This document shows, one piece after another, positions 3,816 to 36,642 of a stretch of DNA of 64,000 nt. The notes beneath the pieces were generated by a model that had not been told where the DNA came from, made no database searches, and saw only the letters and a program-made list of their open reading frames with translations. A program made the translations under genes and the position numbers. Source of the stretch: Nitrospira sp. (GTDB lineage Bacteria; Nitrospirota; Nitrospiria; Nitrospirales; Nitrospiraceae); assembly GCA_036984305.1 (NCBI GenBank), contig BQWY01000002.1, positions 24,151 through 88,150 of the forward strand. Direction: 5' to 3'. Within the stretch, counting starts at the first letter, position 1, and the number at the start of each line of letters is the position of its first letter.

Positions 3816-3870
3816 TTGGGCTCCTTGTAATTCAGCGAGAGTCCCGCACCAGAAGCGGGCTTCCGTGTTC

Positions 3871-4962
3871 CTACATTTGGGTGTCGAGGTACATGAGGAT
3901 CACCAGCGCCCCGATGGCGATCGTCCCGACCGTGGCGTTGATAACACCCATTGGCCATCCGCGCCGGGCCAGTTCCCGATCAATAAACGGGTACACCACG
4001 AAGAGGAGCGCTCCTCCAAGCAACCCCCACAACGCCACCGGCCCCGGTAGCAGCGAAATGACCATGAAGGGAGCCGAGAAATACCACGGAGGAGAGACAT
4101 CGGCCGCCACTTCTTGCAGATCGGCTGGCGGTCCGAGGGTCGGCGGAAAGATCATGACCAGATCCACGATCAACAGCAGCATGCCAACAGCCACGGCACC
4201 CATCAGCAGCGTATGGACGGGATAAAAGGGATGAGATTGTCGGCTCCCCGCCACATCCGCGAACCCGATCAATCGCACGACGAGGACATGCCCGCCAACA
4301 AGCACCACAAGCAGGACCGGCAACAACTTGGTATGTAAATCGTACAAGCGCAAGAGTGTGTTGTCCGAGACCTCTTCCCCCCCGCGCAGAAGGTACAACA
4401 GCGGCGTGCCGACGATGGGCAATGCGCCCAACATGTTCGTCACCACCGTCATGCCCCAGTAGGACACGTTGTCAAAAATCAAGGAATAGCCGGTAAACCC
4501 CATGGCGAAGGTGACGAACAACACAATGGCGCCGGTCACCCATTTCCATTCTCCCGGTGTCCGGTAGGCACGTGTCAGAAATACGCGGATCACGTGAAAC
4601 AGCAGAAACAAGATCATGAGATCCACTGAAAATTTGTGCACGCCCCGCACAAACCATCCCAGATACACCTCTTCCGTGATGAACTCGACGCTCTCATAGG
4701 CCTTGCCGGGCGATGGCACATAATAAAACGTCAGCAACAGTCCCGTTACGATCAGGAAACCCAATAGCGTCAGCGGAATGGCCCCCAGCGTGTACGGCCA
4801 CCAATCAAGGTGCTCGGGCAAATCCTTCTGGATATAAGCGATCCAGCGTTGCGAGTTCCGGTCTTGGTCGACTTTGACGAGATCGGTGTCGGAATGCGCG
4901 CTTGGCATCATGTCTCCAAAAGGGACGTCCTCGATCGCACCAGCGTTCTGACTACGTGGCAA
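3871..4962 (-). CDS. cytochrome b (b6 plus subunit-IV-like, fused)
   Basis: 363 aa, polytopic. Four candidate heme-ligand His (GVHKF, LFHVIR, LHTKL, GGHVL). Qo-type motif reads PPWYF. Start is uncertain: TTG at 4962 or ATG at 4911/4908. Confidence 0.85.
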   Translation of the reverse strand: MPRSQNAGAIEDVPFGDMMPSAHSDTDLVKVDQDRNSQRWIAYIQKDLPEHLDWWPYTLGAIPLTLLGFLIVTGLLLTFYYVPSPGKAYESVEFITEEVYLGWFVRGVHKFSVDLMILFLLFHVIRVFLTRAYRTPGEWKWVTGAIVLFVTFAMGFTGYSLIFDNVSYWGMTVVTNMLGALPIVGTPLLYLLRGGEEVSDNTLLRLYDLHTKLLPVLLVVLVGGHVLVVRLIGFADVAGSRQSHPFYPVHTLLMGAVAVGMLLLIVDLVMIFPPTLGPPADLQEVAADVSPPWYFSAPFMVISLLPGPVALWGLLGGALLFVVYPFIDRELARRGWPMGVINATVGTIAIGALVILMYLDTQM

Positions 4963-5419
4963 GATTCACGTACACCTGTCCGGCCCGATTCACCACCTCG
5001 TAACGGTCCAGGGGGCGCGGCGGAGGCCCGGCAATGTTCCGGCCTTGCTTGTCGTAGATTCCCTGGTGACAGGGGCAGATAAACTGCTCTCTCCGCTTGT
5101 CCCAGGACACGAGACAGCCGAGGTCCGTGCAGCGCCTGGAAAACGCCGCGACGCCCTCGTTGGTTCTCAGGACCAACAGCTTATGGTTCCCTAATTCCAT
5201 CGTGATGGCATCGTTGAGCGGAAGGCTCTGTTCCACTCCGAGTAGGACCGGGACATTGCGTTTGGTCGTGCCCGTCGGCACGAGGAACTGCACGAACCGA
5301 AGCCCGAGCAAGCCCATCCCGAACAACAGGCCAAAGCCCATGACGGCCTGGCTTAAAAACCGTCTCCGCCCCGGATCATCATGAATAATGGCCATGCGCC
5401 ACGAATCCTTTCTCGCCAT
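4952..5419 (-). CDS. Rieske-type [2Fe-2S] protein with a Tat signal and a non-canonical box 1
   Basis: Twin-arginine motif GRRRFLSQAV. Cluster boxes are CTDLGC and CPCHQG. Start is ATG 5419 or 5395; the 175-aa ORF start at 5479 would overlap amt by 100 nt. Confidence 0.8.
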   Translation of the reverse strand: MARKDSWRMAIIHDDPGRRRFLSQAVMGFGLLFGMGLLGLRFVQFLVPTGTTKRNVPVLLGVEQSLPLNDAITMELGNHKLLVLRTNEGVAAFSRRCTDLGCLVSWDKRREQFICPCHQGIYDKQGRNIAGPPPRPLDRYEVVNRAGQVYVNLAT

Positions 5420-6539
5420 GTTGCGCCAGATCCAATCCGAAAATTTCGGCCTGTTCGTCCACGCGCGGGGACAGTACAAGCCTCAGCCCCTTCAATGATA
5501 AGAAGCTCATGCCGCCCGCGAACGCAGCCACCACGACCGTCGAGACCAGTTGCGCAAAGAACTGATAGGGATATCCAAAGAACAACCCATCGCTCCCATC
5601 CGGATTGGCCTCGGTCGAGGCGAACAGACCGGTCGCCACCATCCCCCACGCTCCGCCCACCCCATGCATGCCGAATACGTCCAAGGAGTCATCATATCCA
5701 AGGATCAGCTTGACGTAATTGACCGCCATATAGCAGAGTCCCCCCGCTCCGGTTCCGATCACCACCGCAGACACCGGACTGACATAGCCCGCAGCAGGCG
5801 AGATGGCCACCAATCCGGCGACCAGCCCGCTGCCCATGCCCAGCGCCGTCGGCTTCTCCCGTTGCAACCATTCTGCCACCATCCAGGTCAGCGCAGCCGA
5901 CGCCGCCGACAGTTGGATGGCGACAAACGCGGTCGTAACGATGGTCATGGACACCGGACCGGGTCCAACCGTCATTCCAAACCAACCCGCCCACATCAAC
6001 CCGACTCCCAGAAAGGAGAAGGGCAAATGGCTGGGCAACATTTCATTGCGACCATACCCCCGTCGTGTTCCCAGCACGATGGCTGCCACCAACGCTGTCA
6101 CCCCGGCACTGAGATGGACGACTGCCCCTCCCGCATAATCCAGGCTGCCCAACTTCGTCAGCCATCCTCCCGCCCACAGCCACGATGCCACCGGGCCGTA
6201 GACCAGCAGAATCCAGAGCGCTCCAAACGCCAGGAAGAACGAAAATCGAACCCGCTCGACGATCCCGCCTGCAATCAAGCCGAGCGAGAGGGAGGCCATG
6301 AGGGCATGATGGACCGCGCGTAGCGACCCGGTTTCATCGCCTCCGTAGAGGATCCTGTCACCGACACACAGCCACACGAGGGAGGCGACTGCAAGTGCGC
6401 TAAAGGGCATGCCGATGGTATTCAGCACGTTTTTTCTCCGCACCATCCCTCCGTAAAAGAGCGCCACACCCACAAGGACCAGCATCAGTAGGCTGGTTGC
6501 GATGAGGAACCAGAGCGTTTCGCCACCTGGGTTCGTCAT
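5379..6539 (-). CDS. amt: ammonium transporter (Amt family, short form, no signal peptide)
   Basis: 386 aa with Amt signatures: LFYGGMVRRKNVLNT, DYAGGAVVHLSAG, DDSLDVFGMHGVGG. Confidence 0.92.
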   Translation of the reverse strand: MTNPGGETLWFLIATSLLMLVLVGVALFYGGMVRRKNVLNTIGMPFSALAVASLVWLCVGDRILYGGDETGSLRAVHHALMASLSLGLIAGGIVERVRFSFFLAFGALWILLVYGPVASWLWAGGWLTKLGSLDYAGGAVVHLSAGVTALVAAIVLGTRRGYGRNEMLPSHLPFSFLGVGLMWAGWFGMTVGPGPVSMTIVTTAFVAIQLSAASAALTWMVAEWLQREKPTALGMGSGLVAGLVAISPAAGYVSPVSAVVIGTGAGGLCYMAVNYVKLILGYDDSLDVFGMHGVGGAWGMVATGLFASTEANPDGSDGLFFGYPYQFFAQLVSTVVVAAFAGGMSFLSLKGLRLVLSPRVDEQAEIFGLDLAQHGEKGFVAHGHYS

Positions 6540-6742
6540 TCTCGTCCGCCGCTCAGCGAGACCAGATAGTCAGGTCCTGCTGCCCGTCGCAGCCACACTT
6601 CACCTGATCGGCTCAACCGGTCGATCCCGGCGAAGACTTGCGCCCAGCAAAGGCCGGAACGAAGCCATAGCCGATCCAATGTTTGCGCACCCTCTCGTTG
6701 AAGGATCTCCTTGACGATGGTTTCTGTCGATGCACCTGCCAT
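6536..6742 (-). CDS. small hypothetical protein (68 aa), possibly winged-helix-like
   Basis: ATG at 6742 is preceded by AGGAGGTGA. Its stop overlaps the amt start (ATGA). The upstream part of the 106-aa ORF overlaps a terminator-like hairpin and is probably not coding. Confidence 0.55.
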   Translation of the reverse strand: MAGASTETIVKEILQREGAQTLDRLWLRSGLCWAQVFAGIDRLSRSGEVWLRRAAGPDYLVSLSGGRE

Positions 6743-7039: not shown

Positions 7040-8359
7040 TCATGAATAGGCGCGCTCGTTGTGCTGGGCGAGGTCGAGCCCGATCCGCTCTTCCTCCAAC
7101 GTCACACGCAATCCCACCGCCCAATCGACCAATTTCAGGATCGCCAGCGTCCCGACAGCGGAATAGAGTCCTACGGCAATCGTCGCCACGACCTGTGCAC
7201 CGAAGAAGTGGGCGTTGCCGTACAACAACCCGTCGGCACCGGCCGCATTCACGGCTTTGGACGCCAGCAGACCGGTCGCCAACATTCCGACGACTCCAGC
7301 CATCCCATGAATTCCAACCACGTCCAGCGAGTCGTCATAGCCGAGTTTACTCTTCATCATGATCGCGCCGTAGGATAGCGCTCCAGCCATCACCCCCATG
7401 ACCACCGCGGAGTACTGACCGACATACCCGGCGCCCGGTGTCACCATCGCCAGACCGGCCACCGCACCGCTGGCAACCCCCAGCACGGTTGGCGTACCAC
7501 GATGCGCCCATTCCACGGCCATCCACGTCAAGGCGCCCGAGGTCGCTCCGATATGCGTCGTGAGAAAGGCCGCCACTGCCGTCCCATTCGCAGCCAAGGC
7601 ACTTCCCGCGTTGAAGCCGAACCACCCGAACCACAACAAGCCCGTGGCGAGCAGGACCATGGGGAGATTGTGTGGCGCCAGATAGTCCGTGCCGTAGCCA
7701 TGGCGGGGACCGAGGACGAGCGCACACACCAGGGCGCCGACTCCGCTACTCAGATGCACGACAGCCCCTCCTGCAAAATCCAATGCCCCGGCGCTCGCGA
7801 GCCACCCGCCTCCCCACAACCAGTGGGCAATCGGACAATAAATGGCCAACGACCAGAGCCCGGAGAACAGCAACACCGCGCTGAACTTCATGCGCTCTGC
7901 AAATGCCCCGGTAATCAGCGCCGGTGTGATAGCGGCGAACATCATCTGAAAGATCATGAATGCCTGGTGCGGTATGGTTGGAGCATACACAGCATGCGGT
8001 ACCAGCCCGACGCCGCTCAGGCCCACCCAGTCCAGGCTGCCGAGCAATCCCTTGGCATCGGGACCAAAGGCCAGACTGTATCCAAGGCTCATCCACAACA
8101 GGCTCACCAAACAGACGATCACAAAGCTTTGCATGATCGTTCCCAGGACGTTCTTGCTTCGAACCAGTCCTCCATAGAACAATGCGAGCCCGGGCATGGC
8201 CATCGCCAAGACCAACGCTGAGCTGACTAATACCCAGGCGGTATCCGCCACGTTGATGGTCGGTGAAGTGGCGGCGGTCGGTTCTTGGGCCCCCGCAATT
8301 GTAATCGGCGCAACGCAGGCAAGTACCAACCATACGCTCCATCGGCCGCTTCGATTCAT
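7040..8359 (-). CDS. amt: ammonium transporter with signal peptide
   Basis: 439 aa. N-terminal signal (WSVWLVLACVAPITIAGAQE). Amt motifs: LFYGGLVRSKNVLGT, DFAGGAVVHLSSG, DDSLDVVGIHGMAG. GAGGGG before the ATG. Confidence 0.93.
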   Translation of the reverse strand: MNRSGRWSVWLVLACVAPITIAGAQEPTAATSPTINVADTAWVLVSSALVLAMAMPGLALFYGGLVRSKNVLGTIMQSFVIVCLVSLLWMSLGYSLAFGPDAKGLLGSLDWVGLSGVGLVPHAVYAPTIPHQAFMIFQMMFAAITPALITGAFAERMKFSAVLLFSGLWSLAIYCPIAHWLWGGGWLASAGALDFAGGAVVHLSSGVGALVCALVLGPRHGYGTDYLAPHNLPMVLLATGLLWFGWFGFNAGSALAANGTAVAAFLTTHIGATSGALTWMAVEWAHRGTPTVLGVASGAVAGLAMVTPGAGYVGQYSAVVMGVMAGALSYGAIMMKSKLGYDDSLDVVGIHGMAGVVGMLATGLLASKAVNAAGADGLLYGNAHFFGAQVVATIAVGLYSAVGTLAILKLVDWAVGLRVTLEEERIGLDLAQHNERAYS

Positions 8360-8447: not shown

Positions 8448-8888
8448 TCAGAAGGTCTTGTACTCCAACCACTTCCCATTCAGCGTGATTTTACAGCGCG
8501 CTTCGCCCTGACTCCCGATGACCTTTTCCATATCGAGCGAAAAATCGATGGCGCTCATGATGCCGTCGCCGAACATTTCGTTGGCCATATCACGGAGCGA
8601 ATCGCCGTAGACTCCGATCACCTCAAGTAAGCGGTACTTGAACGGATCGGTCATGTTCGGAAAATCTCCCCGAATCGGGAACTTGCTGAGCGACGCCGTC
8701 TGCTCGGCATCCAGACCCAGCAACCCACCGACCTGCTTCGCTTCCTCCGCCGTAAACTTATGATTGCCATTGAGGACCGCCGCGACGAACGTGGGGTTCT
8801 TCCCCACCACCTTCGCCACCTCCGCAATCGTGACCTTTTTCGTCAACCGTTTCTCCTTGATCGCCTTGCGCACGTCCTCTTTCGTCAT
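8448..8888 (-). CDS. cynS: cyanase (cyanate hydratase)
   Basis: 146 aa, typical cyanase length and sequence (TIAEVAKVVGKNPTFVAAVLNG..., C-terminal ...KITLNGKWLEYKTF). AAGGAG before the ATG. Confidence 0.9.
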   Translation of the reverse strand: MTKEDVRKAIKEKRLTKKVTIAEVAKVVGKNPTFVAAVLNGNHKFTAEEAKQVGGLLGLDAEQTASLSKFPIRGDFPNMTDPFKYRLLEVIGVYGDSLRDMANEMFGDGIMSAIDFSLDMEKVIGSQGEARCKITLNGKWLEYKTF

Positions 8889-12515: not shown

Positions 12516-13925
12516 CTATACATCGTAGTACAGGTAGTATTCATACGGCACCGGTCGCAAGCGCATGGGATCGACTTCCTTGGCGCGCTTGTAGCCAATC
12601 CAGGCCTCGATCAGATCTTCGCTGAAAACACCGCCCTTGAGCAGGAATTGGTGATCCTTCTCCAAGTTGCGCAACGACTCTTCCAGGCTGCCCGGCATGG
12701 TCGGGATCTTCGCCGCTTCCTTGGCCTCGAGGTCGTAGAGGTCCTTTTCGGCCGGTTCTCCGGGATTGATCTTGTTTTCGATGCCGTCGAGACCCGCCAT
12801 CAACATGGCTGAAAACGCCAGGTACGGGTTGCAGGATGGATCCGGAAAGCGCACCTCGATGCGTTTGGCCTTCGGACTCGGCGAATACATCGGTATTCTG
12901 ATCCCTGCCGAGCGATTACGGCTGGAGTAGGCCAGCAACACCGGCGCCTCGAAGCCGGGCGTCAGGCGCTTATACGAGTTGGTCGAAGGATTGGTGAAGG
13001 CCGCCAACGCGGGAGCGTGCTTCAAGATCCCGCCGATATAATACAGGCAGAGTTGCGAGACGCCCGCATACTCCTTGCCCGCGAACAACGGCTTCCCGTC
13101 TTTCCAAATGCTCTGATGCGTGTGCATACCCGACCCATTGTCCCCGAATATGGGTTTCGGCATGAAGGTCACGGTCTTCCCATGCCGGCGGGCTACGTTC
13201 TTGACGATATACTTATACATCATCATTTTGTCGGCCGTGCGCAGCAGCGAATCGAACCGGATATCGATCTCCGCCTGACCCGCCGTGGCCACCTCGTGGT
13301 GGTGCTTCTCGATCTGGATTCCGGCCTTTTCCATTTCCAAAATCATCTCGCTGCGGATGTCCTGCTGCGTATCGGTCGGGGCCACCGGGAAATAGCCTTC
13401 CTTATGGCGGATCTTCCCGCCCAAATTTGGGCCTTCCTGCCCGCTGTTCCAGATGCCCTCCTCCGAATCGACAAAGTAGTATCCGCTATGGCTGGTTTGA
13501 TCGTAGCGGGCCTGGTCGAAGATGAAGAACTCGGCCTCGGGGCCCCAATACGAGATGTCTCCGATCTTGGTGCTTTGCAAATGTTTCTCGGCCTTTTGGG
13601 CCACGTACCGCGGATCGCGATCGTACATTTCCCTCGTGATGGGATCCAACACGTTGCCGACCATGCTCAAGGTCGGGACCGTGCAGAACGGATCCAAACA
13701 GGCGGTCGCCGGATCGGGAATCAGCAACATGTCGCTGTTGTTGATAGCCTTCCAGCCGCGGATGGACGATCCGTCCAGGCCGGAGCCGTCTTTGAACAGC
13801 CCTTCGGTCAATTCCCCGACGGGAATGCTGAAATGCTGCCACGTCCCAATCAAATCGATGAACTTGAGATCGACGACTTGTACCTTGTTCTTCTTCGCGA
13901 GCTCCATCACTTCCTTGACCGTCAT
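12516..13925 (-). CDS. glnA: glutamine synthetase type I
   Basis: 469 aa from ATG 13925 (AAGGAGG upstream). GSI motifs FDGSSI-like (LDGSSIRGW), [32 protein letters not shown]. Confidence 0.95.
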
Positions 13926-13948
13926 TACGCCCCTCCTTTTCAAGACCG

Positions 13949-17034
<3,086 letters not shown>

Positions 17035-17071
17035 TCAACTGCACACCAGCCCGACCTTGCATCGCGCCGCA

Positions 17072-18424
17072 CTACGAGTAGGCTCGTTCATTGTGTCCGG
17101 ACAAATCCAACCCGCTGGCCTCTTCGTCCGGTGTCACGCGCAATCCGACTGCTCCATCGACCACTTTCAGGAGGATATACGTCACAATGATCGAAAAGAC
17201 GGTGACTGCGCACACGGTGAGAGCCTGAACACCGAAGAATGCCGCACCACCGAAGAACAACCCGTCGGCCCCTCCGGCATTAACGGCTTTGGAAGCGAAC
17301 AAGCCTGTGGCGAGAATACCCAAGATGCCGCCTACGCCGTGGATGCCCACCACGTCAAGCGCGTCATCATAGCCGAACTTCCCCTTCCAAACAATTGCCA
17401 AGTAGCACAGGCACGCTCCAATGGCTCCGATCAGGATGGACGAAAATGGCCCGACGTAACCGGCCGCGGCCGTCACCGTGGTTAGCCCGGCGACCGCTCC
17501 GCTCGCCATCCCGAGCACGGTTGACTTCCCGCGGTGTTTCCACTCCACGAACATCCACATGAGCCCGCCTGACGCTGCTCCGAGGTGCGTCGCGACGAGC
17601 GCGGTCACCGCCACCCCATTGGCCCCAAGGGCCCGTCCCGCATTGAGCCCGAACCAGCCGAACCACAGCAATCCTGCTCCCAGTAACGTTAAGGGAAGGT
17701 TATGTGGGGCAATGTAGTCGGTACGATAGCCACGCCGCTGCCCAAGTACCAACGCACACACGAGCGCGGCCACGCCCGAGTTGATGTGCACCACGGCCCC
17801 CCCGGCAAAATCCAGCGCGCCCAGCTTGCTCAGCCAGCCCCCACCCCATAGCCAATGGGCAACCGGCGCATAGACGATCAGCGACCAGAGGAGGGCAAAC
17901 AACAACATGGCGCTGAAACGAACACGCTCGGCAAGCGCCCCGCTAATCAACACGGGGGTGAATGCCGCAAGCATGAGTTGGAACAGCATAACGGCCTGAT
18001 GGGGTACGGTCGGCCCATACGTCCGGTGCGGGTCCAACCCCACGCCGGAAAGGAACATCCATTCAAGACTTCCGATCATTCCTCCAAGGTCGGTGCCGAA
18101 CGTGAGCGTGTAGCCGACCACGACCCATGCCAGTGATACCGCGCAAAGAATACTGAGGCCATGCATGATGGTGGCCAGCGCATTCTTTTTTCTGACGAGC
18201 CCCCCGTAGTACAGTGCGAGGCCCGGCACGATCATGACCAGCACGAGCGCCGTCGAGGCCAGCATCCATGCCGTGTCACCGCTATCAATGTTCGGTCCCC
18301 CGCTCCCGGGTTGGCCGGATTGCGCCCACGCTGTATCACCGCCCACTCCCGCTATCAGCAGCCCCACCAGTCCCCCCACGCTTGCCAGGGCAAGACCGTC
18401 TGCCGTACGCCGATGGAGTCTCAC
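17072..18424 (-). CDS. amt: ammonium transporter with signal peptide
   Basis: 450 aa. Amt motifs LYYGGLVRKKNALAT, DFAGGAVVHINSG, DDALDVVGIHGVGG. GTG start preceded by GGGAGGA. Confidence 0.92.
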   Translation of the reverse strand: MRLHRRTADGLALASVGGLVGLLIAGVGGDTAWAQSGQPGSGGPNIDSGDTAWMLASTALVLVMIVPGLALYYGGLVRKKNALATIMHGLSILCAVSLAWVVVGYTLTFGTDLGGMIGSLEWMFLSGVGLDPHRTYGPTVPHQAVMLFQLMLAAFTPVLISGALAERVRFSAMLLFALLWSLIVYAPVAHWLWGGGWLSKLGALDFAGGAVVHINSGVAALVCALVLGQRRGYRTDYIAPHNLPLTLLGAGLLWFGWFGLNAGRALGANGVAVTALVATHLGAASGGLMWMFVEWKHRGKSTVLGMASGAVAGLTTVTAAAGYVGPFSSILIGAIGACLCYLAIVWKGKFGYDDALDVVGIHGVGGILGILATGLFASKAVNAGGADGLFFGGAAFFGVQALTVCAVTVFSIIVTYILLKVVDGAVGLRVTPDEEASGLDLSGHNERAYS

Positions 18425-18495
18425 ATCGTCCTCCCTTCAGACACGCATCATTCAGGTGAGAAACGGGGCCTAGCCCTCGCCGGGGCCACCTGCCT

Positions 18496-20280
18496 CTAGC
18501 GTTCCTCCCGGTATCGGTTCGTGATCGGCATTCGCCGATCCTTACCTAATCCGCGGTGAGTAATCTTGATTCCTACCGGTGCCTGCCGGCGCTTGTACTC
18601 GCTCCGGTCGACTTGCGCGACAACATGCTCCACCGTGTCACGCGCAAATCCCATTCCGACCATCTCATCGACCGAACAATCGTCTTCTACATAGGCCTTG
18701 AGAATTGGGTCCAAGACCGCATAGGGCGGCAAGGAATCTTCATCGCGTTGGTCTGGACGAAGCTCGGCGGTCGGCGGACGATCCAGGATCCGTTTGGGAA
18801 TCACGGGATTCGCTTCGTGTTCGTTCCGCATCCGGGCCAGCTCGTACACGAGAGTTTTCGGTACGTCCTTGATGACGGCAAATCCACCTGCCATGTCGCC
18901 GTATAACGTCGCGTAGCCGACGCTCATCTCGCTCTTGTTGCCGGTGGTCAACACGAGATGTCCGAACTTGTTGGAGAAGGCCATCAGGAGATTGCCTCGG
19001 ATCCGCGCCTGCAGATTTTCTTCCGTCACATCGGATTGACACCCCTCGAAGGATGACGCCAGTGACTTCCGGTACGCCTCGAAGACCTGGGTGATCGGGA
19101 GCGAGCGGCATTCGATCCCAAGCCGGCGCGCCAGCGCGGCAACGTCCTCGTGGCTCTCCTCGGAGGTATAGGGAGACGGCATAAACAAAGCCAGTACGTT
19201 ACCTGGACCGAGCGCGTCCGCGGCAATGGTCGCCGTGAGCGCGGAATCCACCCCGCCGCTCACCCCAATGACCACACGCCGAAAGCCGTTTTTCCTCACG
19301 TAGTCACGGACTCCAACCACGAGGGCACGATAGACCTCGGCCAAAGGGGTCAATAGTGGAGTCTGGGCCGCCACGAGCCTCGGCCGCTTTACCGACGCCG
19401 GCTGCGTGCTCGGCAACAGCAGCCTTTCCACGCCCACATGCCGGCGTCCCATCGCGGCCTTGCGCGATCCCTGTCCGATGCGGCCGCGTCCGACAGGTTG
19501 CGCGTTCACATCAGCGAGGAGGAAATCCTCCTCGAATGCTTTTGCTCGCGCGATCACCTCGCCCGTCTGGTCGAGGATCACACTGTTTCCATCGAAGACG
19601 AGCTCGTCTTGTGCCCCGACGATGTTCGTGTATGTCACGATGACGTGATGATCCCGAGCACGCGTGGCCAACATCTGCTCACGCTGGCGGCTCTTGCCCA
19701 TGTGGAACGGGGACGCGTTAATATTTACGATGATTTCGGCCCCGGCTGCCGCCTGGGCTTTCGTGGGCCCTTCCGGGAGCCAGATATCCTCGCAGATATT
19801 CACGCCCAGACAGGTCCCATTGAGCATCAAAACCGGAACCCGGCTGCCGGGCATGAAGTAGCGGTTTTCATCGAACACCCCGTAGTTCGGCAGGTGTTGC
19901 TTGGCGTACACGGTGACCAATTGCCCATTGACGATCACAGCCGCGGCGTTATACAGCGCGCCTCGCCCTGACGGTAGCGAGACAGCTCGCCGAGACGACG
20001 CCGAAGGCTCCAGTTCCTGTCCCACATAGCCAACCACGACGGCGAGATCGCGGCATTGCGGTATCAGTTTCTCGAGTGCCAGTCGCGTGTCCTCGATGAA
20101 ACGCGGTTTGAGTAACAGATCTTCCGGCGGATATCCCGTCAATCCCAACTCGGGAAAGGCCACCAGATCGGCATTGGCTTTTCGTGCTTCCTTGATCCAT
20201 CGTTCAATTGCAGCGAGGTTACCCGTGAGATCTCCCACGGTCGGATTCATCTGCGCCATCGCGATCCGGAAGAGCCGCAT
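18496..20280 (-). CDS. nadE: glutamine-dependent NAD+ synthetase (nitrilase/CN-hydrolase domain plus NAD synthetase domain)
   Basis: ATG 20280 is preceded by AAGGAG. N-terminal CN-hydrolase (FPELGLTGYPPEDL, ICEDIW). C-terminal SGGVDS PP-loop. The upstream part of the 666-aa ORF covers the leader and terminator and is not coding. Confidence 0.9.
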   Translation of the reverse strand: MRLFRIAMAQMNPTVGDLTGNLAAIERWIKEARKANADLVAFPELGLTGYPPEDLLLKPRFIEDTRLALEKLIPQCRDLAVVVGYVGQELEPSASSRRAVSLPSGRGALYNAAAVIVNGQLVTVYAKQHLPNYGVFDENRYFMPGSRVPVLMLNGTCLGVNICEDIWLPEGPTKAQAAAGAEIIVNINASPFHMGKSRQREQMLATRARDHHVIVTYTNIVGAQDELVFDGNSVILDQTGEVIARAKAFEEDFLLADVNAQPVGRGRIGQGSRKAAMGRRHVGVERLLLPSTQPASVKRPRLVAAQTPLLTPLAEVYRALVVGVRDYVRKNGFRRVVIGVSGGVDSALTATIAADALGPGNVLALFMPSPYTSEESHEDVAALARRLGIECRSLPITQVFEAYRKSLASSFEGCQSDVTEENLQARIRGNLLMAFSNKFGHLVLTTGNKSEMSVGYATLYGDMAGGFAVIKDVPKTLVYELARMRNEHEANPVIPKRILDRPPTAELRPDQRDEDSLPPYAVLDPILKAYVEDDCSVDEMVGMGFARDTVEHVVAQVDRSEYKRRQAPVGIKITHRGLGKDRRMPITNRYREER

Positions 20281-20352
20281 GGTACTCCTTCGAAACTCCC
20301 GTGACCGACTCCATTTCCTGAGCGACCGGACGTGTCGCCGTCCTGCACGAAC

Positions 20353-20399
20353 AAAAAAAAACGTCCTTGATTCCCAGACGATTGGGAACCCAAGGACGT
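20353..20399 (-). terminator. intrinsic terminator B in the nadE leader, downstream of ureD
   Basis: Minus strand: ACGUCCUUGGGUUCCCA-AUCGUC-UGGGAAUCAAGGACGU followed by U9-10. Confidence 0.85.
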
Positions 20400-20407
20400 C
20401 ATTGTCC
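20394..20407 (-). promoter_or_regulatory. GGAC-AAUGAC-GUCC hexaloop hairpin overlapping the 5' arm of terminator B (candidate P2)
   Basis: Read directly. Loop has A1 and G4. Its 3' arm is the first part of the terminator B stem. Confidence 0.6.
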
Positions 20408-20435
20408 GTGGTTATGTCGTACCGACACCCTGATC

Positions 20436-20451
20436 GAGACGCCTTTGTCCC
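20436..20451 (-). promoter_or_regulatory. GGGAC-AAAGGC-GUCUC hexaloop hairpin (candidate P1)
   Basis: 5-bp stem including one G-U pair. Loop has A1 and G4. Lies 28 nt upstream of P2 and 15-20 nt downstream of the TATAAC -10. Confidence 0.55.
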
Positions 20452-20466
20452 AGGACGGTAGCAGGC

Positions 20467-20496
20467 GTTATAGCAGCCTCCCTCGCTCATTGTCAA
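20467..20496 (-). promoter_or_regulatory. sigma70-type promoter for the nadE unit
   Basis: Minus strand: TTGACA-18 nt-TATAAC. Located between the ureD stop (20560) and the leader hairpins. Confidence 0.6.
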
Positions 20497-22887: not shown

Positions 22888-24615
22888 CTAGAAGAGGAAA
22901 TAGCGTTGCGCCATTGGCAGCACCTTGAGCGGATCGCAACTGAGGAGTTGGCCGTCGGCCCGCACTTCGTAGGTCTCGGGATCAACCTCCAAATGCGGCA
23001 TCGCGCTGTTGAGCTTCATGTCTCGTTTCGTAATCGTCCGACACTGCCCCACCGTCGCGATGCGCTTCTGCAATTCCAGTTGGGCGGGCACCCCCCGCTG
23101 CACACCGGCCGCCGAGAGGAAGGTCAGACTGGTCGAGTACGGCGCGCGCCCGAACGATCCAAACATAGGACGGGTGTACACGGGCTGCGGGGTGGGGATC
23201 GACGCGTTTGGATCTCCCATGGCGGCGGACATGGGAAATCCCCCCTTGATGACGATCTCAGGCTTGACGCCGAAGAACGCGGGTCTCCAGAGCACCAAGT
23301 CGGCCAACTTGCCGACCTCGAGCGAGCCGACTTCATGAGCGATGCCATGTGCGATGGCCGGGTTGATCGTATACTTTGCTATGTAGCGGCGTGCCCGAAA
23401 ATTGTCTTGCCGTTCTTCCCCGCCTACCATGTCGTTTTGAGCGAGATGGCCACGCTGGATCTTCATCTTGTGCGCCGTCTGCCACGTGCGGATGATGACC
23501 TCCCCCACACGTCCCATGGCTTGTGAATCGGACGACATCATGCTGATGGCACCCATGTCGTGCAGGATATCCTCCGCGGCAATGGTCTCACGACGTATCC
23601 TCGATTCGGCAAATGCCACGTCCTCCGGCACGCGGGGGTTTAAGTGATGACACACCATCAACATGTCGAGATGTTCATCCATCGTATTGACGGTGAACGG
23701 CATCGTGGGATTGGTCGACGACGGCAGCACGTTGGCCTCGCCGCAGATTTTGATGATGTCCGGCGCATGGCCCCCGCCGGCTCCTTCGGTGTGGAATGAA
23801 TGGATGGTGCGACCCTTGAAGGCCTTGATGGTGTCCTCGAGGAATCCCGCCTCGTTGATGGTATCGGTGTGGATCGCCACTTGCACGTCGTACTCCTCCG
23901 CGACGTCGAGACAGGTCGAAATCGCCGCGGGCGTCGTGCCCCAATCCTCGTGCAGTTTCAACCCGATGGCTCCGGCCTCGACCTGCTCCCGCAAGCCCTC
24001 CGGTCGAGCGGCATTGCCCTTCCCAAAGAATCCGAGATTAATGGGAAATCCGTCCGCGGCCTCCAGCATGCGTCCGATGTTCCATGCGCCTGGGGTACAC
24101 GTCGTCGCGTTGGTCCCGGTCGCGGGACCGGTCCCCCCTCCGAGCAACGTCGTGAGGCCAGCGGCAACAGCCTCGTACACGATCTGGGGACAGATGAAAT
24201 GGATATGACTGTCGATTCCGCCGGCTGTGACGATCCGCCCTTCGGCGGAGAGGGCTTCAGTGCCAGGACCGATCTCCATTCCCGGCGTCACCCCATCCAT
24301 AAGGTCCGGATTGCCGGCTTTGCCGATCCCGACAATGCGACCGTCACGAATACCGATGTCCGCCTTGACCACGCCCCAATAGTCGAGGATCACCGCGTTG
24401 GTGATGACCAGATCGAGTGCCCCCTGCGCACGCGTCGCCGTCGGGGACTGTCCCATCCCATCCCGGATGACCTTCCCTCCGCCGAACTTGGCTTCCTCAC
24501 CGGGAACGGTGAGATCGCGCATGACTTCGATGATCAAATCCGTGTCGGCGAGGCGTATGCGGTCTCCGGTCGTCGGACCATAGAGATCGACGTATTGACG
24601 ACGAGACAAGTTCAT
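22888..24615 (-). CDS. ureC: urease alpha subunit
   Basis: 575 aa. [42 protein letters not shown] and other canonical urease alpha motifs. Confidence 0.97.
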
Positions 24616-33006: not shown

Positions 33007-33047
33007 AAAAAAAAACGCCCTTCCGGCCCATTTGGACCAAAAGGACG
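33007..33047 (-). terminator. intrinsic terminator C (T2) in the porin-urt leader
   Basis: Minus strand: CGUCCUUUUGGUCC-AAAU-GGGCCGGAAGGGCG (14 bp including G-U pairs) followed by U9. Lies about 55 nt upstream of the porin start codon. Confidence 0.8.
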
Positions 33048-33056
33048 CCGTTGTCC
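33043..33056 (-). promoter_or_regulatory. GGAC-AACGGC-GUCC hexaloop hairpin overlapping the 5' arm of terminator C (candidate P2)
   Basis: Read directly. Loop has A1 and G4. Its 3' arm is shared with the terminator stem. Confidence 0.6.
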
Positions 33057-33070
33057 TCATGTGAACTTGG

Positions 33071-33104
33071 AAAAAAATCGTCGTGGAACCACGCTGTTCC
33101 ACGA
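33071..33104 (-). promoter_or_regulatory. UCGUGGAAC-AGCGUG-GUUCCACGA hexaloop hairpin followed by CGAU7 (candidate P1, itself terminator-like)
   Basis: Perfect 9-bp stem. Hexaloop has A1 and G4. A U7 tract follows 3 nt after the stem, so it may act as a first attenuator. Confidence 0.55.
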
Positions 33105-33128
33105 ACTGACACACACAAAAACGGCCCT

Positions 33129-33158
33129 CTTGTATCGGATCGCTCTCTTGGTTGTCAA
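33129..33158 (-). promoter_or_regulatory. sigma70-like promoter for the porin-urt-ure unit
   Basis: Minus strand: TTGACA-17/18 nt-(A)TACAAG, about 25 nt upstream of the first leader hairpin. Confidence 0.4.
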
Positions 33159-33251: not shown

Positions 33252-34256
33252 ATGCACATTTTTACGTCCATTTTTCCGTGGCAGCTGGTCACGGGCTCTC
33301 TCCTCTGCCTAATCACGTTTCACGGTTGTGGACTGCTTTCCTCTTCCCGAACAGGGCTCTACGACGGACCTCGGGGACGCGTCTATCTCGAAACCGTCCC
33401 TGAGCGAGGCGCAAGCGGCGGCGTTGGGGTGCGGACTGGCTTGGATGCGTCACATCCCGCTCTCATCGAACCTGATGTGATCGCATCGCTTCTGAGAGGT
33501 CTTCAGATCAAAGAAACCTCAAGTTTCGGTGCGTTGTTGGACACGTCCGGAACGCCACGGCCGATCTTTACCAAGGAAGAGGCCGCTTTTTTGGCTCCGC
33601 TCCTGAGCTCGGCCTTGGCGAAGGCCTCTCCTTCCCAATTTGTCGTGTTTGAACTCCAGCAGCCACCGACCGGTTATCGCGCAAAGCGGGTTCCTGGAGC
33701 CGGAGCCGGCTCGTCCATTCCCAGTCCCGAACAGGTGAGCACAGAGGAAACCTCGGGGGCGCTGTACGTCTTTGGCCGCTCGTTGCACGCCGTGTTGACG
33801 AAATTCCGTTACGTGCCCGACCCACCCGACACGATCCGGATGGCCAATCGTCTCCTGCCGGATCCCACCGGTCTGGCCGAGTACAAGGTGTCCTTCTCTC
33901 CGGCGGCCGCTCTTCGACCAGATACGTATGCTCGCGAGGCACTGCCGGTTTCAGACGAACTACCCTCGTTTGTCATCGACTATCAAGCACTCCCCAGTTT
34001 GGTCGTAACGCCCGCCCCTGCGCCCGGGGCGTCGCAGGCATCCGGGACCACGTCCGCACCTGCGCCGTCGCGGCCGGCAAGCGCAGAGACCCCACCCCAG
34101 AATCAAATTCGTGAATTGAAAGATCTTGTTGTCGAGAAGGATCTGGAATTGGAACGATTGCGGAAAGAACTTGAACAGCTGAAACGGCGGCCGCCGACAC
34201 CGGGGCAGGCCCCTTCGAAAGTACCACCTGGCGGAAAAGTTACTCCCGCGCCGTAG
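33252..34256 (+). CDS. hypothetical secreted protein/lipoprotein with a C-terminal coiled coil and Pro-rich tail
   Basis: In-frame part of the 637-aa ORF that does not overlap the porin gene. Hydrophobic N-terminus with ...LLCLITFHGC. C-terminus IRELKDLVVEKDLELERLRKELEQLKRRPPTPGQAP. Start is uncertain (ATG 33225, 33228 or 33252) and has no clear SD. Confidence 0.5.
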   Translation: MHIFTSIFPWQLVTGSLLCLITFHGCGLLSSSRTGLYDGPRGRVYLETVPERGASGGVGVRTGLDASHPALIEPDVIASLLRGLQIKETSSFGALLDTSGTPRPIFTKEEAAFLAPLLSSALAKASPSQFVVFELQQPPTGYRAKRVPGAGAGSSIPSPEQVSTEETSGALYVFGRSLHAVLTKFRYVPDPPDTIRMANRLLPDPTGLAEYKVSFSPAAALRPDTYAREALPVSDELPSFVIDYQALPSLVVTPAPAPGASQASGTTSAPAPSRPASAETPPQNQIRELKDLVVEKDLELERLRKELEQLKRRPPTPGQAPSKVPPGGKVTPAP

Positions 34257-34265
34257 CACCCGCCG

Positions 34266-35534
34266 CTAGGATGCCGTCCCTGCCCCGCCAGCCTGCCCGT
34301 CGATCTCTCCGGCCAGTAAAATGGCCTCAGCAACCTCACGCATCGATTTACGCATCGCCATGCTTTGCCGTTGAATGAGGCGGAACGCCTCCTCCTCCGA
34401 GAGTCGCCGTGTCCGCATAATATAGCCCTTCGCGCGCTCCACCACTTTGCGCACCGCGAGTGCCTCCTGCATCTCGAAGGACTTGTCGATCAGCGTCGTG
34501 TGCTCGATCGCGATGGCCGCTTGATTGGCGATAGCCTGAAGGATCTTCGTTTCCTCGTTGGTGAACTCATGGGGAACGGAGGTGTAGGTGTTGATGACGC
34601 CGACGACCTTTTCTCGGACCAGCATCGGAACGGACAACAGGGAATAGAGTCCTTCGCGCCGTGCCAGATCTGGATACATGAAATCGTGATCTGTTGTGAC
34701 GTCCGGCACCATGATGGGGCGCCGTTCCTGCACGGCGCGACCACTGATGCTCTGGCCGACCCGCAGGTTTGGCTTGCGCCGATAGGCTTCGCTGAGGCTT
34801 TGGGTTGCCACGATTCGCAGTTCGCCCTTGTCGTGATCCAGCACCATGATCGAGCAGATCTTTGAGTTCATGAGTTGCGCAACCATCGCAACGATCAGTT
34901 GGAAGACGTCCTCAATCAATCGATTGGAGGTCACCGTTTCGGAAACCTGTGACAACGTCTCGACCTGAAGAGCCTTGCGCCGCATCTCTTCATAGAGTCG
35001 GGCATTCTCGATGGCTCCGCCCACCTGATTGGCAATCGTGGTCAGCAGGGCCAGTTCGTCTGTACCGTACCGGCGCGGTCGCTTGTGCTGCACATTGATG
35101 ACCCCGACCACTTCCTTCTTGGTCAAGATGGGCACGGACACAAACGCCTGATAGCGGTCTTCCGGCAAGTTGTGAAAAAACTTGAAGCGTGGATCGTCAC
35201 TGGCGCTGCTGGGAATGACAACGCTGGTCCGCTCTCGGGCGACCCACCCTGTGATACCTTCACCCAATCCGATCGTAATTCTGCCAATCAGGCGAGGATG
35301 CGGATTTTTCGATGCCCGCAGAACCAACTCATGCTTGTCCGCGGACAAGAGATAGAGCAGGCAAGCGTCGCATTTAGTCACCTCGACCACCACATCCACG
35401 ATATGGCGGAGGACCGCCGCGAGATCAAGGGTGTTGCTGATGGAGTCGCTGATACGATGTAGCACCTCGACTTCGCGCGTTTTGGTGCGCAAAGCGTGTT
35501 GGATTCGCTGCGTCGAATTGGAACTACGTTTCAT
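34266..35534 (-). CDS. GAF-GAF-ANTAR RNA-binding antitermination regulator
   Basis: Two GAF-like blocks (LEVLHRISDSISNTLDL...GITGWV; LSQVSETVTSNRL...). C-terminal ANTAR-like helix bundle (ALAVRKVVERAKGYIMRTRRLSEEEAFRLIQRQSMAMRKSMREVAEAIL). ATG 35534 lies 8 nt after the aroB stop. Confidence 0.8.
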   Translation of the reverse strand: MKRSSNSTQRIQHALRTKTREVEVLHRISDSISNTLDLAAVLRHIVDVVVEVTKCDACLLYLLSADKHELVLRASKNPHPRLIGRITIGLGEGITGWVARERTSVVIPSSASDDPRFKFFHNLPEDRYQAFVSVPILTKKEVVGVINVQHKRPRRYGTDELALLTTIANQVGGAIENARLYEEMRRKALQVETLSQVSETVTSNRLIEDVFQLIVAMVAQLMNSKICSIMVLDHDKGELRIVATQSLSEAYRRKPNLRVGQSISGRAVQERRPIMVPDVTTDHDFMYPDLARREGLYSLLSVPMLVREKVVGVINTYTSVPHEFTNEETKILQAIANQAAIAIEHTTLIDKSFEMQEALAVRKVVERAKGYIMRTRRLSEEEAFRLIQRQSMAMRKSMREVAEAILLAGEIDGQAGGAGTAS

Positions 35535-35541
35535 TGTTTCC

Positions 35542-36642
35542 CTAATCCCGGGTCCGTGTACGATACCACCGCGCGAACGTTGACCGTCCGATCGGTGCGA
35601 TCCGCACGGCTCCGATTCGTTCAGGCCATACACCATGAACCTGGCCCTGCACCACCTTTTTGTCGTGCTGCATCGCGTCCCACAGCTGGCGCTCGGTGCA
35701 TCGCGGCAGACGGCTTGGCAACCCGGCGGCCTCCACCAATGTGAGGATACGTTCCGGCACGTCCAACCGGCAGTAACCGAGCTTGTGCGAGATCCACGCT
35801 TCCTGCACCATTCCTATGGCCACCGCCTCACCGTGAATCAACGCGCGATAGTGTCCGAGCGTCTCCAATGCATGCCCGATCGTGTGTCCGTAGTTCAGGA
35901 TACGGCGACGATCGCCTTCCCGTTCGTCCGATGCCACGACCTCGGCCTTGATCTCACACGAACGCTGAATGATCTTCGCAATCGTGTCTTCATCCATCTT
36001 CAGGACGCTGGACATCGTCCGCTCGAGATACACGAAGAATTCCTGGTCGGCAATGACACCATATTTGATAACCTCCGCCACTCCCCCGAGCCGCTGTCGA
36101 AGCGGCAATGTCCGAAGGGTAGACGGATCGACCAGTACGGCGCGCGGCTGGTAGAAAGCACCGATAAGATTCTTCCCTTGGGGGTGGTTAATGCCGGTTT
36201 TTCCCCCGACACTAGAATCGACCTGGGCCACCACAGTGGTGGGTACCTGGACAAAGGGGATCCCGCGCAGGTAGCTCGCTGCGGCAAATCCCGTCAAGTC
36301 ACCGACAACCCCACCGCCGAGCGCAACGAGAAACGAACTGCGCTCCAGCCGGGCTTCCACGAAGCGGTCCAACACCCGCCCAAGCCAAACGAGGCTCTTG
36401 GCTCGTTCGCCGGCTGGCACCGTCACCAGCTGCGCGCCCAACCCCGCCCGCCGAATGGACCGTACGGCTGTCGGAGCATAGAGTCCCCCCACGGTCCGAT
36501 CGGTTACAATGCATACGGTTCCCTTGGCGCCGAGACGCCGGAGATGCCCTCCAAGCTCTCCGAGCAAACCGGATTGAATGGTGATGTCATAGCTACGATC
36601 GCCAAGGACAACCGGCACCGATATGGAAGCCATTGCCGTCAT
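35542..36642 (-). CDS. aroB: 3-dehydroquinate synthase
   Basis: AroB motifs (GGGVVGDLTGFAA, GGKTGINHPQGKNLIGAFYQP, LNYGHTIGHA). Start is ATG 36642 or 36633. The upstream 76 codons of the ORF look non-coding. Confidence 0.9.
   Translation of the reverse strand: MTAMASISVPVVLGDRSYDITIQSGLLGELGGHLRRLGAKGTVCIVTDRTVGGLYAPTAVRSIRRAGLGAQLVTVPAGERAKSLVWLGRVLDRFVEARLERSSFLVALGGGVVGDLTGFAAASYLRGIPFVQVPTTVVAQVDSSVGGKTGINHPQGKNLIGAFYQPRAVLVDPSTLRTLPLRQRLGGVAEVIKYGVIADQEFFVYLERTMSSVLKMDEDTIAKIIQRSCEIKAEVVASDEREGDRRRILNYGHTIGHALETLGHYRALIHGEAVAIGMVQEAWISHKLGYCRLDVPERILTLVEAAGLPSRLPRCTERQLWDAMQHDKKVVQGQVHGVWPERIGAVRIAPIGRSTFARWYRTRTRD

Follow-up and report, generated by a model that had tools for sequence, protein, structure and literature searches.

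A candidate ANTAR-target attenuation leader heading the nadE-amt-glnK-glnD-glnA operon of Nitrospira, with related leaders at further nitrogen operons

Nitrospira are the dominant nitrite oxidisers, and their comammox members are complete nitrifiers, in soils, waters and treatment plants. To our knowledge the way in which these bacteria control their own nitrogen assimilation is essentially undescribed. One 64,000-nucleotide stretch of a Nitrospira genome (assembly GCA_036984305.1, contig BQWY01000002.1, positions 24,151 to 88,150; hereafter the window) raises this question in a concrete form. On its minus strand, between the urease (ure) genes and a run of genes encoding glutamine-dependent NAD synthetase (nadE), an ammonium transporter (amt), PII (glnK), GlnD (glnD) and glutamine synthetase (glnA), lies an intergenic region that carries a promoter-like sequence, two small hairpins and an intrinsic terminator. 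What does this region do? Here we present a computational analysis pointing to an ANTAR-target transcription-attenuation leader that would head the nadE-amt-glnK-glnD-glnA operon and be opened by a genetically linked GAF-GAF-ANTAR protein, a reading to which we assign a probability of roughly 0.8.

ANTAR-target RNAs are defined by two hairpins with hexaloops carrying A at position 1 and G at position 4 (A1/G4) (PMC3369931, PMC8164766), and the closing base pairs are important for EutV (PMC3369931). In the established model the active regulator binds the hexaloops and stabilises the second hairpin (P2), leading to terminator read-through (PMC3369931). Ahead of nadE, the sequence of the minus strand contains the following elements, listed in the direction of transcription:

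20496-20491, minus strand: -35 box TTGACA
20475-20467, minus strand: extended -10 box TGcTATAAC (TG at 20475-20474, TATAAC at 20472-20467)
20452-20435, minus strand: first hairpin (P1), (U)GGGAC-AAAGGC-GUCUC(G), starting 15 nt past the -10 box
20408..20434, minus strand: linker between P1 and P2, 27-28 nt (28 if counted from the end of GUCUC)
20407-20394, minus strand: P2, GGAC-AAUGAC-GUCC, with an A1/G4 hexaloop
20399-20361, minus strand: terminator ACGUCCUUGGGUUCCCA-AUCGUC-UGGGAAUCAAGGACGU, a stem of 16-17 bp with one bulge
20361-20353, minus strand: U9 tract, directly 3′ of the terminator stem
20290-20285, minus strand: ribosome-binding site AAGGAG
20280, minus strand: ATG start codon of nadE

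An initial annotation had listed these elements, from TTGACA through the nadE ATG, and every one of them lies where it had been placed. The spacer between TTGACA and TATAAC is 18 nt, and the whole promoter of the nadE unit spans 20467..20496 on the minus strand. The A1/G4 hexaloop of P1 is closed by an A-U and a C-G pair, with one G.U pair in GGGAC/GUCUC and an additional outer U.G pair; within the linker a mini-hairpin UGUCG-GUA-CGACA is possible at 20427-20415. P2 and the terminator share one strand: the end of the P2 loop and the P2 3′ strand (ACGUCC, 20399-20394) form the base of the terminator 5′ arm. The same annotation had counted three A1/G4 hexaloops. Those of P1 and P2 stand, whereas the resemblance of the terminator loop AUCGUC is coincidental, the corresponding loops of orthologous leaders differing in length and sequence.

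For the 126-nt leader the computed folding energy is -54 kcal/mol, with z = -4.3 relative to shuffled sequences, and the minimum-energy fold consists of P1 and the terminator with P2 absent. Taken singly, the terminator contributes -24.7 kcal/mol and P2 -5.4 kcal/mol. Because the terminator stands in the minimum-energy fold and P2 is weak alone, termination would be the default state and P2 would require outside help to form. A G+C-rich stem followed by a U-tract, as expected of an intrinsic terminator, is present.

The arrangement suggests a mechanism in which transcription would start about 8 nt before P1 from a promoter of the form TTGACA, N18, TGnTATAAC, whose -35 box is perfect. Left to itself, the nascent RNA would form P1 and the -25 kcal/mol terminator with its U9 tract, and transcription would stop before nadE. 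The active GAF-GAF-ANTAR protein, probably as a dimer, would bind the two AAYGRN hexaloops with their A-U and C-G closing pairs and keep the weak P2 helix (GGAC/GUCC) closed, thereby withholding the base of the terminator 5′ arm; RNA polymerase could then read into the nadE operon.

Leader-peptide or translational control was also considered and rejected, the ribosome-binding site and ATG lying 62-72 nt past the terminator in a stretch that is not conserved. In relatives, the terminator-to-nadE stretch is replaced by 150-250 nt including inserts that resemble repetitive extragenic palindromes (REP). Inserts about 150-200 nt long, which contain extended imperfect palindromes (for example GGTGAAAATGGCC...GGCCATTTTGACC), occupy the terminator-nadE interval in loci L002, L004, L005 and L012-L015; they are of REP type or of miniature inverted-repeat transposable element (MITE) type in look, and are absent from the window.

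How widely is the leader shared? Relatives of the NadE protein point to Nitrospira, with a best identity of 72%, and so do those of the ANTAR protein. A nadE-anchored sample comprised 893 kb around 80 nadE homologues from many phyla, and a regulator-anchored sample comprised 80 metagenome loci (928 kb), for which the sole selection criterion was an orthologue (76-87% identity) of the GAF-GAF-ANTAR protein. Leaders were sought with a strict motif, namely two A1/G4 (ANNGNN) hexaloop hairpins separated by no more than 45 nt and then a T run of at least 6, and with a covariance model, R1, built from 18 Nitrospira copies with a 7-bp P1 and a 4-bp P2. In the nadE-anchored sample the strict motif occurs in Nitrospira loci only, one weak match included, and R1 gives 19 significant matches, all of them in Nitrospira loci. 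Orthologous nadE leaders are found in seven Nitrospira loci (L002, L005, L010, L012, L013, L014 and L015). An alignment of eight nadE-leader sequences keeps TTGACA, TGnTAT, both hairpin cores and the terminator 3′ base GAGGRCG with its U-run. Linkers differ from one leader to the next in both sequence and length, as do the terminator apices; in the apex, covariation preserves the pairing. Conservation of GGAC-N6-GUCC in orthologous nadE leaders, on which the initial annotation had staked its proposal, thus holds in these seven loci; several other Nitrospira loci, considered below, lack the leader altogether.

The regulator-anchored sample extends this picture. R1 recovers 54 leaders there, 53 of the 54 on the regulator's strand and within 10 kb. 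The first recognisable gene past the leader is nadE in 21 cases, a porin-like gene in 16, urtA in 6 and amt in 2; a urea-uptake operon follows 22 leaders. Behind the nadE-headed leaders, amt, glnK, glnD and glnA usually come next where the contig continues. The claim of the initial annotation that the leader heads the nadE-amt-glnK-glnD-glnA unit is supported by the 21 leaders that nadE follows.

The features that define the class are retained throughout the 54 copies. Loop 1 has A1 in 52/54 and G4 in 54/54; loop 2 has A1 in 53/54 and G4 in 54/54. The P2 loop follows the consensus AAYGRC, and its GGAC/GUCC stem is nearly invariant. Of the 51 distinct copies, 50-51 retain the A-U and C-G pairs that close each loop, and the outer P1 pairs vary, with compensatory changes in 5/7 P1 pairs (18 and 51 distinct homologues). 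Paired cells amount to 97-98% in these two sets, a figure inflated by the selection or fitting of the copies by pairing. A U-run lies downstream in 45 copies, and in 44 of these 45 the terminator stem takes up the P2 GUCC as paired bases; the median terminator energy is -24 kcal/mol. Linkers have a median of 26 nt (range 14-40; more than 25 nt in 32/54), and about half of them are able to form a small hairpin. The description of the leader as an ANTAR-type dual-hexaloop/terminator element is upheld by the A1/G4 loops, the P1 covariation, the P2-terminator overlap and the linked ANTAR protein.

Each hairpin is at the same time a DNA inverted repeat, and one may ask whether the palindromes GGAGAC-N6-GUCUCC and GGAC-N6-GUCC are instead operators of a dimeric transcription factor just past the promoter. 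The invariance of P2 would suit an operator, as would the position of the elements, at about +8 to +60 from the presumed start, where repressors can act. The stems, however, contain 31 G.U pairs against 2 A.C mismatches, a strand-specific bias (favoured by the model fitting) that favours RNA on the leader strand over a DNA palindrome. The outer P1 stem varies in sequence with its pairing kept, the conserved loops are non-palindromic, P2 overlaps the terminator in 44/45 copies, and the protein linked to the leaders is of the RNA-binding ANTAR type. We consider DNA operators highly improbable.

A more conventional explanation would be that an ordinary intrinsic terminator ends the ure operon and that an unrelated constitutive nadE promoter and small hairpins of no regulatory role happen to accompany it. 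The terminator is indeed strong, forms the default fold and is the sole one between the ureD stop and nadE, and in some Nitrospira loci nadE follows ureD without a leader. What makes this explanation very unlikely is that the conserved promoter lies upstream of the terminator, which its transcripts must traverse. Moreover, the leader stays with nadE when the upstream gene is an ANTAR or lipoprotein gene and not ureD; conservation of P1, P2, A1 and G4 far exceeds that of the terminator apex; and five paralogous copies in the window all head nitrogen-metabolism operons. The suggestion of the initial annotation that the leader also ends the ure operon is plausible here, since nothing else terminator-like was found between the ureD stop (20560) and the leader, but this role would be incidental: across loci the leader follows nadE whatever the upstream gene, be it ureD, a lipoprotein gene or the ANTAR gene.

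The preferred reading, an ANTAR-target leader, gains from these further copies. Scanning the window with the strict motif gives 5 matches, all on the minus (coding) strand and all intergenic, compared with a mean of 0.02 in 100 dinucleotide-preserving shuffles of the window. One of the 5 joins hairpins that belong to two adjacent leaders, and one genuine copy (12443-12342), which has a T5 run only, was detected separately. R1 finds exactly five genuine copies at 37-47 bits, leaving a clean gap between the lowest true score (37.5 bits) and the next best match (12.6 bits):

33104-33007, minus strand: leader before a porin-like gene, urtABCDE and ure genes (R1 47.1 bits); promoter and leader together 33007..33158, with P1 33104-33081, P2 33058-33041 and a terminator with U9
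20452-20353, minus strand: leader before the nadE unit
12443-12342 and 12336-12243, minus strand: tandem leaders (R1 38.7 and 46.7 bits), P1 to P2 at 12443-12379 and 12336-12279, each with its own terminator
6862-6770, minus strand: leader with P1 6862-6847, P2 6841-6824 and a terminator (R1 37.5 bits)

In all window copies the minimum-energy fold is P1 plus a terminator that consumes P2. Downstream of the tandem leaders lies a nitrate/cyanate-type ABC transporter (NMT1_2 binding protein, NtrB-like permease and ATPase), and the same operon includes the cyanase gene cynS (8448-8888) and an amt (7040-8359). The leader at 6862-6770 is followed by a 68-aa open reading frame (ORF), amt, and genes for a Rieske protein, a cytochrome b and a multihaem cytochrome.

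Could the five copies be a dispersed REP/MITE-like repeat with no nitrogen-specific function? Several similar copies within one window, and REP-like palindromic inserts beside some Nitrospira nadE leaders, might prompt the thought. The copies are alike in their hairpin cores only, with wholly different linkers and terminator stems; every copy heads a nitrogen operon, in coding orientation and with a promoter of its own; and orthologous positions are retained across genomes. R1 found no copies elsewhere in the window, the ribosomal-protein and pilus regions included. We find a dispersed repeat scarcely credible.

Taken as ANTAR-target leaders, the copies in the window appear together to form one nitrogen-assimilation regulon, gating most such genes. 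The same module would gate the urea uptake/urease operon, the cyanate transporter-cyanase-amt operon with its two tandem leaders, and the amt-cytochrome cluster. One regulator would thereby coordinate urea uptake and hydrolysis, cyanate uptake and cyanase, three ammonium transporters, glutamine synthetase, PII, GlnD and glutamine-dependent NAD synthetase, and probably the amt-adjacent cytochrome cluster. All genes of the regulon share a strand and run from 33.1 kb down to about 2.4 kb, so that each leader terminator would also end the preceding unit.

Some individual features of these copies deserve separate mention. P1 of the urt leader (33071-33104, minus) is a 9-bp hairpin followed directly by CGA and U7, and could act as an extra terminator ahead of the P2 terminator. 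In the tandem pair a recognisable promoter, TTGACG-N17-TAAGCT, is present at the first leader only. The 68-aa ORF just past the last leader (6536-6742, minus) has a good ribosome-binding site and a stop that overlaps the amt start (ATGA); it gave no Pfam or NCBIfam match. Directly after the amt behind the last leader, the Rieske, cytochrome b and multihaem cytochrome genes (2403-5479, minus; the last with c554 and seven-haem domains) follow. According to a Nitrospira genome paper, a gene for an octahaem nitrite reductase (ONR) lies near glnA, amtB and glnK (PMC5767232), and the multihaem cytochrome may be this enzyme as reported in N. moscoviensis and N. japonica. The ONR-type cluster is also a hint that the window stems from a lineage akin to these two species.

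If control is exerted at the terminator, what of the promoter? A sequence of the form TTGACA-N17/18-TA.... lies 12-26 nt upstream of P1 at 44/54 leaders, against 0/162 control windows taken 400-1000 nt upstream, and is conserved in orthologues. In the nadE-type leaders a TG additionally extends the -10 box, and P1 begins at a constant 15 nt from it. A promoter of the unit's own, as first annotated, is supported by this conservation. A generic promoter/terminator scan reported neither the nadE promoter nor its terminator. The promoter escaped it because the scan demands T at position 6 of the -10 box, which TATAAC does not have; the terminator, also missed, has one unpaired base in its stem. 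Both calls accordingly draw on sequence and conservation. No sigma-54 box (TGGCAC-N5-TTGCW) occurs in any of the five leader regions, and its matches across the window (30 against 27 expected) are at chance level. Since the promoters are nearly identical and resemble the consensus, most of the control would seem to act at the terminator.

The genes behind the nadE leader, assigned by Pfam, are as follows:

18496-20280, minus strand: nadE, glutamine-dependent NAD synthetase (CN_hydrolase and NAD_synthase domains; NCBIfam NAD+ synthase)
17072-18424, minus strand: amt
16678-17016, minus strand: glnK
13949-16681, minus strand: glnD
12516-13925, minus strand: glnA
12516..20290, minus strand: the controlled unit from the ribosome-binding site to glnA, with short gaps

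The order by Pfam is ureA, ureB, ureC, ureF, ureG, ureD, leader, nadE, amt, glnK, glnD, glnA. Intergenic gaps from nadE to glnA are 71, 55, -4 and 23 nt, ribosome-binding sites are present, and no strong terminator was found inside these gaps. The layout is consistent with nadE-amt-glnK-glnD-glnA forming a single transcription unit.

Which protein would open these leaders? The candidate is encoded on the strand of the nadE leader, 14 kb upstream of it and a short way ahead of the urt leader:

34266..35636, minus strand: GAF-GAF-ANTAR candidate regulator (Pfam ANTAR PF03861, 3.3e-19, and two GAF domains; start codon uncertain)

Its ANTAR domain is C-terminal. The first GAF domain resembles that of PtsP/EI-Ntr over about 160 residues (NCBIfam NF008283, 1e-41; PDB 3ci6, 7e-22), and the second resembles the N-terminal GAF domain of NifA (TIGR01817, 3e-30; Aquifex Nlh1 structure 4g3k, 1e-8). 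The NifA GAF domain binds 2-oxoglutarate. Glutamine is bound by the EI-Ntr GAF domain (PMC4848567). With one domain resembling the glutamine-binding PtsP GAF and the other the NifA GAF, the signal is likely to be cellular nitrogen status; these similarities serve as leads on the signal.

Two side observations concern the surroundings of this gene. An ORF divergent from the ANTAR gene lies between it and the urt leader (about 33300-34256, plus); its C-terminus is proline-rich and coiled-coil-like (...KDLVVEKDLELERLRKEL...), and it gave no family match. A similar ORF occurs in Nitrospira lenta (L024, 7764-8753, minus). At L016 (about 5900-6000), from a sponge-associated Nitrospira, a promoter, a P2 hairpin GGGAC-AAAGGC-GUCCU and a terminator with U9 lie between the ANTAR gene and nadE; no recognisable P1 was seen there, and R1 gives no score.

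Several findings weigh against the reading of the nadE leader as an ANTAR target opened by this protein. The first concerns the linker. Linkers in eut leaders are 5-12 nt, and lengthening to 14 nt impaired induction (PMC3369931); an actinobacterial ANTAR RNA set was curated with linkers of 2-25 nt (PMC8164766). The 27-28 nt linker found here (median 26 nt) exceeds the eut range and lies at or beyond the curation limit. All structural ANTAR-target hallmarks save linker length are present, and the linker limit is a curation habit rather than a strict definition. Secondly, the seeds were picked by pairing and the alignment (A3) was fitted to R1, which inflates both the pairing percentage and the G.U excess; no such selection acted on loop identities, terminator overlap, strand or gene context. 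Thirdly, the -10 box ends without the final T in all copies and is imperfect by E. coli rules, leaving the promoter call to conservation.

Fourthly, nadE occurs without the leader after ureD in L004, L006, L007 and L011, after aroB in L008 and L009, and directly after the ANTAR gene in L001, L024, L059 and L074. These Nitrospira loci indicate that the position of the leader at nadE is lineage-specific. In L008 and L009 (Nitrospiraceae) aroB is followed by nadE-glnK-(glnD)-glnA, with neither ANTAR gene nor leader, and in the window the ANTAR gene stands directly downstream of aroB, a hint that genomes acquire or lose the regulator and the leaders jointly. Finally, the similarity of the GAF domains is moderate, with scores far under the full-length family cut-offs for PtsP and NifA, and the window covers 64 kb of genome, so that an ANTAR protein encoded elsewhere could be the true partner.

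These last two points also favour a variant in which the attenuator is a genuine ANTAR target and the adjacent GAF-GAF-ANTAR protein is not its controller, or nitrogen status not its signal. Another ANTAR protein could act here; the GAF ligand could be nitrite, urea, cyanate, a redox signal or a cyclic nucleotide; or a partner such as PII could be involved. GAF domains take many ligands (PMC3369931), known ANTAR proteins are often controlled by partners, as AmiC-AmiR and NasS-NasT exemplify (PMC2995071; PMC3795266), and glnK and glnD lie inside the controlled unit. The tight linkage speaks against another controller, with 53/54 leaders on the regulator's strand within 10 kb and the ANTAR gene directly upstream of a nadE or urt leader in many genomes. 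Neither a second ANTAR gene nor an NtrC-like gene was found among the scanned ORFs of the window, and the content of the regulon is uniformly nitrogen assimilation. We judge this variant unlikely, and retain the linked GAF-GAF-ANTAR protein as the probable controller.

A broader interpretation goes further and is, in our view, possible but doubtful. Nitrogen assimilation in Nitrospira would be gated after initiation by a single one-component GAF(PtsP-like)-GAF(NifA-like)-ANTAR sensor, and not by NtrC/sigma-54 or NtcA-type control of initiation. The sensor would directly read glutamine and/or 2-oxoglutarate and open terminators behind near-identical constitutive promoters, covering urea and cyanate uptake and hydrolysis, ammonium transport, glutamine synthetase and PII/GlnD. 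If so, PII/GlnD would stand downstream of the primary sensor and not upstream of it, and the linkers of about 26 nt would imply an RNA-binding geometry unlike that of the EutV dimer.

The remaining content of the window comprises aroB, pilMNOPQ, an rpoN cluster and ribosomal-protein operons. Its sole Rfam match at the gathering threshold is RF02514 (5′ ureB small RNA; 24174-24469, plus; 86.8 bits, full length), antisense inside ureC (22888-24615, minus). This match may reflect coding conservation of the urease alpha subunit and not a real antisense RNA.

The analysis offers a concrete, testable regulon, with five leaders in the window and dozens in metagenomes, and supplies a candidate regulator from the uncharacterised GAF-ANTAR class. 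The signature TTGACA-N18-TATAnn followed by GGRGAC-AAYGRN-GUCUCC ... GGAC-AAYGRC-GUCC is usable for annotating Nitrospira genomes and interpreting metatranscriptomes. The value lies in Nitrospira physiology and genome annotation; as a principle the proposed control is unsurprising.

How do these leaders compare with known systems? Rfam 15, applied with the gathering threshold to the window and with E values up to 10 to the leader, gave no relevant family, the only matches at the leader being chance ones to narK and RSV_PBS; neither the glutamine riboswitch nor other Rfam cis-regulatory RNAs gave a covariance-model match at the leader. A literature search found no paper linking ANTAR or antitermination to Nitrospira. 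Likeness to the EutV/eutP, NasR/nasF and AmiR/amiE leaders is extensive: tandem hexaloop hairpins with A1/G4 and the closing pairs, a P2 exclusive with an intrinsic terminator, a nearby ANTAR gene, and nitrogen-metabolism genes downstream. Unlike the eut leaders, with linkers of 5-12 nt, those of Nitrospira have long ones (27-28 nt at nadE, median 26 nt), and in contrast to EutV, NasR and AmiR targets their loops are tighter (AAYGRN) and their stem tops are fixed as AC...GU. The partner also differs, being a one-component GAF-GAF-ANTAR protein where the known systems use REC-, NIT- or AmiR_N-ANTAR proteins. The proteins to which its GAF domains are similar, PtsP and NifA, have a phosphotransferase or AAA+ activator output, whereas here the output is an RNA-binding ANTAR domain. 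No GAF-ANTAR protein had been characterised by 2012 according to Ramesh et al. (PMC3369931), and a 2025 review mentions GAF-ANTAR solely as a domain combination. A Nitrospirota host is likewise absent from the tables of Ramesh et al. (PMC3369931).

The genes concerned have precedents. The initial annotation had called it unusual to place PII, Amt and glutamine synthetase behind a conditional terminator; this was overstated, as Desulfotomaculum ANTAR RNAs and Geobacter GnfR precede it. Most ANTAR RNA hits of Ramesh et al. (2012) precede nitrogen genes, including those for PII, ammonium and urea transporters and glutamine synthetase (PMC3369931). Their Table S2 lists, for Desulfotomaculum carboxydivorans, ANTAR RNAs before glutamine synthetase, Amt-PII, a urea transporter/urease and an 'uncharacterized NAD+ synthetase' (PMC3369931). 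That regulon, likewise a prediction only, is near-identical in content, has tandem hits before one operon and an ANTAR gene inside the cluster. It differs in that its regulators are annotated as ANTAR response regulators of two-component systems, glnD is not listed, and the genes are spread over several units and not joined in a single nadE-amt-glnK-glnD-glnA unit.

In Geobacter sulfurreducens, the GnfK/GnfR system uses an ANTAR regulator to antiterminate nif genes and glnK-amtB, with premature termination shown experimentally for nifH (PMC2995071). As proposed here, nitrogen genes in Geobacter, glnK-amtB among them, have leader terminators that an ANTAR regulator overrides. The Geobacter promoters are sigma-54 promoters activated by GnfM, with antitermination as a second layer, whereas the promoters here look sigma-70-like; and GnfR is a phosphorylated response regulator, unlike the one-component Nitrospira protein. 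The regulatory principle is thus already known and is not a new mechanism. What appear to be new are the Nitrospira host and its phylum, the one-component GAF-GAF-ANTAR regulator, and the unusually long linkers.

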